Source of the DNA: Escherichia coli O127:H6 str. E2348/69
GTDB lineage: Bacteria > Pseudomonadota > Gammaproteobacteria > Enterobacterales > Enterobacteriaceae
Assembly: GCF_000026545.1 (NCBI RefSeq)
Contig: NC_011601.1
DNA: 64,000 nt
Reading direction: 5' to 3' (one strand)
Position numbers: made by a program. The stretch's first letter is position 1; the number at the start of each line of letters is the position of its first letter. Positions 42,001 through 45,000 of this stretch are shown here, piece after piece.

Positions 42001-45000
42001 AATTTCCTTATCAACAATAGGAGATATCCGATCATTCAGCATAGCAACGCGTGACGGTAAAATATCTAATGCCACAACCTCATGATTTTGTGCGATTAGA
42101 AGCCCGTTTGACAAGCCTACATAACCGGTACCGGAAATGGTGATTTTCATTTCATGCTCTCAGAATTAACTTAACTGTGAATCATGATGTTTTTAGCATC
42201 CTGATAAGAGCTAAAAGTTTTAACGCTACGTTGTTCGATGGTCAACGCAACGAAAAACAATTCAGATTTTCTTTATAAGAATAGCTGATATTTATTAAGT
42301 TAATATTAAGCAGTGAAATTTAGTCTATAAGATAATTGGCAAAAAAAAGCCCGGTGCAATATACGCCGGGCCTCAATTTTATTGTTGGTTAAATCAGATT
42401 AATCCAGCCATTCAGTATGGAACACACCTTCTTTATCAATGCGCTTATAAGTATGCGCACCGAAATAGTCACGCTGTGCCTGGATCAGGTTCGCAGGCAG
42501 AACAGCGGCACGGTAGCTATCGTAATAGGCAACCGCAGCAGCGAAGGTCGGAACCGGGATACCGTTCTGTACTGCATAAGCAACGACATCACGCAGCGCC
42601 TGCTGGTAGTCATCGGCAATTTGCTTGAAGTACGGAGCCAGCAGCAGGTTAGCGATCTGCGGATTTTCGGCATAAGCATCGGTGATTTTCTGCAGGAACT
42701 GCGCACGGATAATGCAGCCAGCACGGAAAATCTTCGCGATTTCGCCGTAGTTCAGATCCCAGTTGTACTCTTCAGACGCCGCACGCAGCTGAGAGAAGCC
42801 CTGAGCGTAAGAAACGATTTTGCCCAGATACAGCGCACGACGAACTTTCTCGATGAACTCACCTTTGTCGCCAGCTGGCTGCGCTTGCGGGCCAGAGAGA
42901 ACTTTAGATGCGGCAACACGCTGCTCTTTCAGAGAAGAGATATAACGTGCAAACACAGACTCGGTAATCAGCGACAGCGGTTCGCCGAGATCCAGCGCGC
43001 TCTGGCTGGTCCATTTACCGGTACCTTTGTTAGCCGCTTCATCCAGGATCACATCAACCAGGTAGTTACCGTCTTCATCTTTTTTAGTGAAGATGTCTTT
43101 GGTGATGTCGATCAGGTAGCTGCTCAGTTCACCGTTATTCCACTCGGTAAAGGTCTGTGCCAGTTCTTCGTTAGAGAGATTCAGGCCACCTTTAAGCAGA
43201 GAATAGGCTTCAGCAATCAGCTGCATATCACCGTATTCAATACCGTTGTGAACCATCTTCACATAGTGACCTGCGCCATCGGCACCAATATAGGTAACGC
43301 ATGGCTCACCGTCTTCAGCTACTGCGGCGATTTTGGTCAGGATCGGAGCAACCAGTTCATAGGCTTCTTTCTGGCCACCAGGCATAATGGAAGGACCTTT
43401 CAGCGCGCCCTCTTCACCACCGGAAACACCGGTACCGATGAAGTTAAAGCCTTCGGCAGAAAGCTCACGGTTACGGCGAATGGTGTCCTGGAAGAATGTA
43501 TTACCACCATCAATGATGATGTCACCTTTATCGAGGTACGGCTTGATGGAATCAATAGCAGCATCCGTGCCAGCACCTGCTTTCACCATTAACAGGATGC
43601 GACGAGGCGTTTCCAGAGATTCAACAAACTCTTTCACCGTATAGTAAGGAACCAGTTTCTTGCCTGGATTTTCGGCAATCACTTCTTCCGTCTTTTCACG
43701 GGAACGGTTGAAAATAGAGACGGTATAACCACGGCTTTCGATGTTGAGCGCAAGGTTGCGCCCCATCACTGCCATACCGACTACGCCGATCTGTTGCTTT
43801 GACATTGTTTACTCCTGTCAGGGGTGGTTACCGCCAAGTGTGCGGCTTGGATATGATGCAGATGTTAATATAAATACAGGTAAATCTCACATGTAATGTC
43901 AATGAGAATTGAAACAATGAAAACTCTACATTGCTATCCAGTTTTCATTTTTAAGAGAGCATTCATTTCCGGATATGTACCATTGTTTAGGCGCGATGAC
44001 TAGCTTATCTTCTGACCTGTTTAGCCATGCCCCCCACCAACTATATGTGCTGTTTGCAATAATATTATTATTACACAATGACATTAAATACATATCAATT
44101 ACACTAAATTTGTTTTCATCAGCATCAGCAACCAAGCAATTGCTATATTTTGAGAATTTTTCCTTTGCCCATATGACATCATCTGTAAAGATTATAAATG
44201 TCTGAGAGCCACATTCACTTTCAATGTATTCCATTGCACTAATATAATAATCCATACTTAGAGTGCCGTGAAATTTTGCAGCATGTTTATTATTTACATA
44301 ATCTCCACGTCGCACATGAATTGACGTTATATTCTTAGAGTCAGTAATTAAGGAATATATTTGTAGGTTATGACATAACACGCGAAGATCATCACGTATT
44401 TCAAAAAGGGGCAAAATTAAATCCCTATGTTCATTTAATAATTTAGAATCTTGGTAAAATGAGAATAGACACGCAACATCAATGTTTTTAATTGATTCCG
44501 GATTGTAATAAGAAGCATCATTTAATGAATATTTATTACACAGTTTAATTGCAGTGAACTGAAGAAAACTGTTAAGCAGTGGTATTTTTTTATGTTTCCT
44601 CAAACGATTTATTTTTACTTTTTCATCTTTAGAACTAAACCTATCAAAAATAATTTTAAATTGATCAAGCTCAAGATGTCGTATAGTATCTTTTTGAGGC
44701 TGGTTGAAATAATAACTATCATCAAGCACTAATATAGTATCAGGAAAATGTTGCTTAAGGATATAGGCTGCAGCATATTGGAACATTTGATTACCTAACC
44801 CACCGGATAGACAGCAATACATCATTAAGTCCTTATTTAACTAATGCTTTAATAAAATGATATGTACAAGAAAGAAAACTCATTATACTTTTCTTTTTAA
44901 GAAATTCTCGCAAAGAATACCCAGCACATTCATAATATGCCAGTTTAGACTTCTGTGTTGAATTTGAGTGAACACGGTAATTTAACAAAGGCTCTTCCAT

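Follow-up and report, generated by a model that had tools for sequence, protein, structure and literature searches.

The locus lies within a 64,000-nt stretch of Escherichia coli O127:H6 E2348/69 (hereafter the window, to which all positions refer), and centers on the spacer between gnd and ugd. The genes and the features that concern us are as follows:

39860-40894, minus strand: wzzB (NCBIfam equivalog model, well over cut-off)
40984-42150, minus strand: ugd (pmrE), UDP-glucose 6-dehydrogenase, the regulated gene (NCBIfam equivalog NF011631, 892.8 bits; named ugd in E. coli annotations)
42399-43805, minus strand: gnd, 6-phosphogluconate dehydrogenase, the upstream gene (NCBIfam equivalog NF006765, 771.4 bits)
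42341-42374, minus strand: gnd intrinsic terminator, consisting of a GC-rich hairpin with its core at 42371-42349 and a T8 tract at 42348-42341, from hairpin detection and RNA folding
42294-42310, minus strand: PmrA/BasR box CTTAATATTAACTTAAT, made up of half-site 1 (CTTAAT, 42310-42305), a spacer (ATTAA, 42304-42300) and half-site 2 (CTTAAT, 42299-42294), from pattern match, weight matrix, conservation and a listing in PMC1525208
42278-42283, minus strand: predicted -10 hexamer TATTCT, 10 nt downstream of the box, from conservation
42217-42245, minus strand: candidate PmrA-independent promoter, TTGACC (42245-42240), 17 nt, TAAAAC (42222-42217), from conservation
42151-42271, minus strand: predicted ugd 5' leader, approximately 121 nt, from conservation

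The gnd–ugd spacer spans 42151-42398 (248 nt, 68% A+T), and the junction as a whole matches the E2348/69 genome at 100% and that of K-12 at 98.6%. Read along the minus strand, the gnd stop codon is followed by the hairpin with its T8 tract, approximately 30 AT-rich nucleotides, the box, a further 10 nt, the TATTCT hexamer, and a leader of about 120 nt. The terminator, which folds with a centroid energy of -17.7 kcal/mol (z = -2.8) and runs directly into U8, sets gnd apart from the ugd promoter; a hairpin is kept at this position in all aligned species, while its sequence varies. A consensus scanner limited to 8-nt loops did not detect this minus-strand terminator, because a C–A mismatch in the stem leaves only six contiguous pairs around an 11-nt loop, and an Rfam search of 41900-42600 returned sub-threshold terminator-like matches only.

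A sequence-only reading of this spacer had proposed that the minus strand at 42294-42310 matches the PmrA pattern YTTAAK-N5-YTTAAK about 145 nt upstream of ugd, and both statements are borne out. The box consists of two YTTAAK hexamers in direct repeat, separated by exactly 5 bp, with zero mismatches and in the same orientation as ugd; relative to the ugd ATG (42150), it runs from 160 nt upstream (5' end) to 144 nt upstream (3' end). Across the 64-kb window the degenerate pattern occurs twice, compared with 0.21 occurrences expected from shuffled sequence; within the 248-nt spacer alone, 5e-3 occurrences of the degenerate pattern and 2.4e-4 of the exact CTTAAT-N5-CTTAAT are expected analytically. 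We scored the window with a weight matrix trained on eight PmrA boxes from the literature, ugd excluded (E. coli and Salmonella arnB/yfbE and eptA/yjdB, together with yibD, STM1269, ybjG, and Klebsiella pbgP). On this scale the ugd box reaches 25.1 bits (matrix maximum 26.8; training sites 20.3-26.3), 10 bits above the runner-up in the 64 kb, which scores 15.0 bits at 48191-48207. That runner-up, TTTAATACTAATTTAAG, was rejected as a PmrA site given its score and its position within a 423-aa ORF in the AT-rich DNA of the O-antigen cluster. As a positive control, we searched 50 kb of E2348/69 around basRS, where the pattern matches the eptA and pmrR promoters only. The cognate regulator and sensor are present in the same genome, with eptA-basR-pmrB-pmrR annotated outside of the 64-kb window.

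The sensor BasS/PmrB responds to Fe3+, Al3+, or mild acid by phosphorylating BasR/PmrA, and the phosphorylated PmrA dimer binds CTTAAT hexamers head to tail, with hexamer starts 11 bp apart (approximately one helical turn of the DNA). The bound dimer activates sigma-70 RNA polymerase at promoters without a -35 element. Ugd makes UDP-glucuronate, from which the Arn pathway produces 4-amino-4-deoxy-L-arabinose (L-Ara4N) for lipid A, and L-Ara4N on lipid A lowers the binding of polymyxin and cationic peptides.

There is no TTGACA-like -35 hexamer at the ugd box promoter; the box would stand in for that element, with TATTCT 10 nt downstream serving as the -10 hexamer. T1, A2, and T6 of this hexamer are invariant in Escherichia, Salmonella, and Citrobacter (TATTCT, TACTCT, TATCGT, TATGAT, TACCCT). 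The adjacent, E. coli-specific TATAAA at 42277-42272 was rejected as a -10 element: it is unconserved in that role (TAATGA in Salmonella, GATAAA in Citrobacter), in contrast to the invariant TAnnnT at 42283-42278. With this -10 hexamer, the transcription start is predicted at approximately 42271/42270, and the box would then extend from about -39 to -23, across the -35 position. Bound PmrA would thereby let sigma-70 RNA polymerase start at approximately 42271, so that the ugd mRNA would begin with some 121 nt of leader. The pmrR promoter of E2348/69 has the same 10-nt gap between its box and its -10 element, CATACT. A consensus promoter scanner called no promoter at the ugd box, as expected, because the box replaces the -35 element. 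Published work names pbgP, ugd, and pmrCAB as promoters whose pmra-box overlaps the -35 element, and the pbgP box lies at -41 to -25, four bp downstream of the PhoB site (PMC10570014); the predicted ugd geometry falls within 2 bp of that of pbgP.

The ugd PmrA box is already known, and what we describe here is textbook biology rather than a discovery. A motif at -163 to -145 from ugd is given for E. coli K-12, two O157 strains, and CFT073, and at the same -163 to -145 for S. Typhimurium LT2 and S. Typhi, in supplementary file 2 of Monsieurs et al. 2006 (PMC1525208). These coordinates coincide with 42312-42294, so that the site and its distance from the ATG are the same as those listed for E. 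coli and Salmonella. The machine-read text of the supplement prints an extra C (20 letters for 19 positions), and the directly read sequences give the true 19-mer. For Salmonella, Zwir et al. 2012 (PMC3335776) and Harari et al. 2009 (PMC2681069) call the PmrA, PhoP, and RcsB sites of the ugd promoter experimentally verified. For E. coli, a 2022 JBC article reports, citing Ogasawara 2012, that the promoters of ugd, eptA, and arn are bound by phospho-BasR (PMC9396075). Iron-adapted E. coli B shows joint induction of ugd, eptA, arnABC, pmrR, and basR, and the PmrA-repressed yrbL shifts in the opposite direction (PMC13405929). No footprint at a different position of the ugd promoter came to light in the literature, in which the footprint coordinates available are second-hand. 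A full-text literature search with the exact 17-mer CTTAATATTAACTTAAT found no paper. The earlier assignment of the repeat as a PmrA/BasR box controlling ugd (pmrE) is thus supported by the published listing, by identity with Salmonella, by the promoter geometry, and by the reported BasR binding. We regard the ugd box as a calibrated positive control, in which a textbook two-component operator is recognizable from sequence alone. Most E. coli isolates reportedly lack the coupling of PmrA genes to low Mg2+ through PmrD, and low Mg2+ may for that reason give no ugd response even if the box works.

Comparison with characterized systems places the site more precisely. Salmonella enterica ugd (pmrE/pagA) carries the same 19-mer, TGCTTAATATTAACTTAAT, in the corresponding place, after the gnd terminator and ahead of ugd, at the same listed distance from the ATG (PMC1525208, supplementary file 2), and its -10 hexamer is aligned with that found here (TATCGT versus TATTCT). 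The stretch that separates the box from the -10 element is not the same in the two species, nor is the early leader. They also differ upstream: in Salmonella the hairpin of the gnd terminator bears a perfect PhoP box, TGTTTAAGCCCGGTTTA, 64 nt ahead of the PmrA box start, whereas the corresponding position in E. coli reads AATTGAGGCCCGGCGTA, which is not a PhoP box. The 64 nt fit the published separation of about 65 bp between the two Salmonella boxes, whose PhoP site lies 145 nt upstream of an RcsB-dependent start (PMC3335776, PMC2681069). Within E. coli, the boxes of eptA (yjdB/pmrC; CTTAAGGTTGGCTTAAT) and pmrR (CTTAAGGTTCACTTAAT) in the same strain follow YTTAAK-N5-YTTAAK in the direction of transcription, as does the ugd box, and arnB (yfbE/pmrH; CTTAAGGTTAAGTTAAT) has the same direct repeat in the same orientation (PMC1525208). 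The ugd box differs from these three in that its half-site 1 ends in T rather than G and its spacer consists of A and T only, and the ugd promoter differs in its much longer leader (about 121 nt) and in following immediately on the terminator of a housekeeping gene unrelated to it. Further afield, the Klebsiella pneumoniae pbgP box also comprises two hexamers 5 bp apart, overlapping the sigma-70 -35 position and bound by a head-to-tail PmrA dimer (PMC10570014), for which structures of PmrA with DNA and of the PmrA transcription activation complex are available, although it is imperfect (CTTAAT / CCTAAG), in contrast to the perfect repeat at ugd. PhoB, a regulator of the same family, likewise binds a direct repeat, the pho box of pstS, that replaces the -35 element approximately 10 bp upstream of the -10 element; the pho box differs in its CTGTCA-type recognition, and its published position lies upstream of that of the pmra-box by about 4 bp (PMC10570014).

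A scan with the Ugd protein, at one genome per species, returned at least 80 loci. Among the matches listed, E. coli, E. albertii, and three Citrobacter genomes carry an identical or near-identical box at positions -157 to -160 relative to the ugd ATG. The remaining 75 loci among the matches listed (Enterobacter, Kosakonia, Lelliottia, Kluyvera, and Pluralibacter included) have no box in the 400 nt upstream of ugd, and the 22 closest of these still show no box when two mismatches are permitted. Klebsiella ugd is likewise reported to have no PmrA box (PMC2919465), in agreement with its absence from other genera. Salmonella was not among the matches listed, and the loci of S. enterica, S. diarizonae, E. 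fergusonii, and C. rodentium were added through exact-protein look-ups; in the first three of these, the box falls at the homologous place in the alignment. Its sequence in the individual species is as follows:

E. coli (window and K-12) and E. albertii: CTTAATATTAACTTAAT
S. enterica and S. diarizonae: CTTAATATTAACTTAAT, with the entire 19-mer TGCTTAATATTAACTTAAT identical
E. fergusonii: CTTAATGTTAACTTAAG
Citrobacter sp. R56: CTTAATACTAACTTAAT
C. youngae: CTTAATCTTTACTTAAT
C. rodentium: CTTAATAATAACTCCAT, with the second half-site weakened (CTCCAT)

The 19-mer TGCTTAATATTAACTTAAT, read directly, is also identical in K-12 and E. albertii. The alignment comprised ten sequences, and conservation was calculated over the eight non-redundant Escherichia, Salmonella, and Citrobacter lineages among them. 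All six positions of half-site 1 are invariant, and half-site 2 has a mean identity of 0.94. The box spacer (ATTAA, GTTAA, ACTAA, or CTTTA) averages 0.88, the 30 nt upstream of the box 0.72, and the 10 nt that separate the box from the -10 element 0.59. This pattern, in which two conserved hexamers surround a freer spacer, is as expected of a direct-repeat protein binding site. Taking together the score, the geometry, the conservation, and the earlier descriptions, we consider that the repeat is very probably the operator of a PmrA(BasR)-dependent ugd promoter, with a probability of roughly 0.92.

Downstream of the box, the alignment reveals another promoter-like element, in which TAAAAC is invariant at five of its six positions across genera. 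This TTGACC-17-TAAAAC element is a candidate only for a second ugd promoter, and would adjoin the RcsB-dependent start known from Salmonella: carried over to the window, both published distances would put that start at approximately 42213-42229, or 45-60 nt downstream of the predicted PmrA-dependent start. We make no claim for the conserved block AAAGAAAATCTGAAT as an RcsAB box, since its spacing is off by one relative to the consensus.

The box is not universal within E. coli itself. In a sample of 5426 complete E. coli genomes, in which the box-bearing promoter was scored with an 86-nt query, we observed the following distribution:

3624 genomes (67%): box-bearing gnd–ugd promoter
916 genomes (17%): an unrelated 248-nt spacer, with strain JNU as the type and E. 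coli C as a further carrier
886 genomes (16%): neither query matched

The JNU-type spacer shows no PmrA box even at two mismatches, and retains the TTGAC-N17-TAAAAC element. The accompanying ugd is a mosaic: its first 400 nt are only 57-73% identical to the window, and the remainder is 93-100% identical; among the loci compared, the 5' part is closest (approximately 80%) to Pluralibacter- and Enterobacter-type alleles. Three examples of this type are JNU, where the spacer lies behind an O105-type O-antigen cluster, and two genomes with a manC-manB-gnd-ugd arrangement. There is also an O59 strain in which ugd sits behind wzx and an acetyltransferase, with no box. Some further genomes have ugd embedded within the O-antigen cluster, again box-less. 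Because about 17% of E. coli genomes, and some others, do without the box, it is dispensable for ugd expression as such.

The repeat might also be explained in other ways. A chance match in an AT-rich spacer, with no regulatory role, would be in keeping with the 68% A+T of the spacer and with the second degenerate match within a gene, which indicates that AT-rich DNA can yield the loose pattern by chance. However, the expectations for the spacer given above are far below one, the site has been described previously (PMC1525208, supplementary file 2), and its placement with respect to the conserved -10 element does not vary. The half-sites, moreover, are invariant or nearly so over three genera while the adjoining bases change, and this conservation pattern effectively refutes a chance origin, which we find hardly credible. 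A real site could instead be used mainly or additionally by another OmpR-family regulator, or could act negatively. QseB would be one such regulator; it is a paralogue of PmrA, and the idea of cross-talk between the two comes from the uropathogenic E. coli literature. PmrA itself represses some promoters (pmrD, yrbL; PMC3335776). Nevertheless, a box that takes the place of an absent -35 element and precedes the -10 by 10 nt has the geometry of an activator site, and in iron-adapted E. coli B ugd and the PmrA-activated genes go up together, with yrbL moving in the opposite direction (PMC13405929), which leaves a different regulator or a negative role very unlikely.

Slightly less probable still is that the box is nearly silent in E. 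coli, with ugd driven mainly by the downstream TTGACC-17-TAAAAC promoter, possibly in an Rcs-dependent manner. The conservation of TTGAC-N17-TAAAAC even in box-less E. coli spacer alleles would fit such a scheme, as would the need of box-less strains for ugd in making surface polysaccharides and the existence of a separate RcsB-dependent start in Salmonella (PMC3335776). Yet both hexamers would not have stayed intact across genera if the site were silent, and ugd behaves as a member of the BasR regulon in E. coli B transcriptomes (PMC13405929); the two promoters are, in any case, not mutually exclusive.

The box-less alleles are the only lead of wider interest to emerge from this analysis. The allele would be a recombinant, consisting of an imported spacer together with the 5' end of ugd. 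It is possible, at somewhat below even odds, that the PmrA-dependent ugd promoter behaves as a recombining cassette, and that E. coli is thus naturally polymorphic for BasR control of ugd. That a sizeable minority of E. coli naturally lacks the box could alter the response of ugd, and of lipid A aminoarabinose, to iron, acid, or polymyxin, a regulatory consequence for which a limited literature search found no paper. If the box-less alleles are truly BasR independent, the supply of the aminoarabinose precursor would differ between lineages, and perhaps inducible polymyxin tolerance would as well; such a lineage difference would arise apart from mutations in basRS or arn.

The comparison also fixes the anatomy of the E. 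coli gnd–ugd spacer as a terminator, a PmrA box, a -10 element, and a long conserved leader. The predicted leader, which matched no Rfam family at threshold, is more conserved than the promoter, with 35 of its last 66 nt invariant. It contains an invariant TTAAGTTAAT (42174-42165) adjoining the Shine-Dalgarno sequence GAGAG (42161-42157), and ends in GAGAG-N6-ATG. As a separate observation, the leader element TTAAGTTAAT is the reverse complement of part of the PmrA box.

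The PmrA box of ugd (CTTAAT-N5-CTTAAT) belongs to a promoter that we find in 3624 of 5426 complete E. coli genomes (67%). Another 916 (17%), E. coli C among them, carry an unrelated gnd-ugd spacer from which the PmrA box is absent, and the ugd gene accompanying this spacer is a mosaic whose first approximately 400 nt have just 57-73% identity to the window. In an O59 strain, ugd is located within the O-antigen cluster, and no PmrA box is present at the gene there. In two further genomes, insertion sequences between gnd and ugd stop just upstream of the ugd promoter, and the PmrA box and all sequence downstream of it are undamaged, which suggests that the functional ugd promoter begins close to the box.

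Box-less spacer: L081:3553-3800 (E. coli JNU), counterpart of window 42151-42398; also in L089 and L091
IS1 and IS200-family insertions: L082:1221-2352 (E. coli 17MR471) and L086:262-1216 (S. diarizonae)

Within 50 kb around basRS of E2348/69 itself (L093), the pattern YTTAAK-N5-YTTAAK matches at the eptA and pmrR promoters only. At pmrR, CATACT follows the box with 10 nt in between, a spacing identical to that of the ugd promoter; the -10 element of the eptA promoter is less obvious.

PmrA boxes of the eptA-basR-pmrB-pmrR region: CTTAAGGTTGGCTTAAT and CTTAAGGTTCACTTAAT, L093:12828-12844 and 16410-16426

The second match to this pattern in the window, TTTAATACTAATTTAAG (48191-48207, minus strand), is intragenic, within an ORF of 423 aa (47395-48666) in the O-antigen cluster, whose DNA is AT-rich. 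It scores 15.0 bits with the matrix built from eight other published PmrA boxes, versus 25.1 for the ugd site; we consider it a chance match and reject it as a PmrA site.

In S. enterica (L084 and L085), a perfect PhoP box, TGTTTAAGCCCGGTTTA, overlaps the hairpin of the gnd terminator and lies 64 nt upstream of where the PmrA box starts, whereas E. coli reads AATTGAGGCCCGGCGTA in its place (window 42355-42376). Judged from this sequence difference, control of ugd by PhoP seems to be specific to Salmonella.

Downstream of the box, the inferred ugd leader contains two conserved elements.

42165-42174, minus strand: TTAAGTTAAT, close to the Shine-Dalgarno sequence of ugd, on its 5' side
42217-42245, minus strand: TTGACC-17 nt-TAAAAC

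Conservation is unusually high throughout the last 66 nt of the leader (35 invariant positions), for which Rfam holds no matching family. TTAAGTTAAT, unchanged in ten lineages, is the exact reverse complement of a box segment, ATTAACTTAA (window 42295-42304, minus strand). TTGACC-17 nt-TAAAAC is kept across genera, is present also in the E. coli spacer allele that lacks the box, and is a candidate for a second, PmrA-independent ugd promoter, possibly Rcs-dependent; distances published for Salmonella (PMC3335776, PMC2681069) place the RcsB-dependent ugd start at approximately 42213-42229 in the window.
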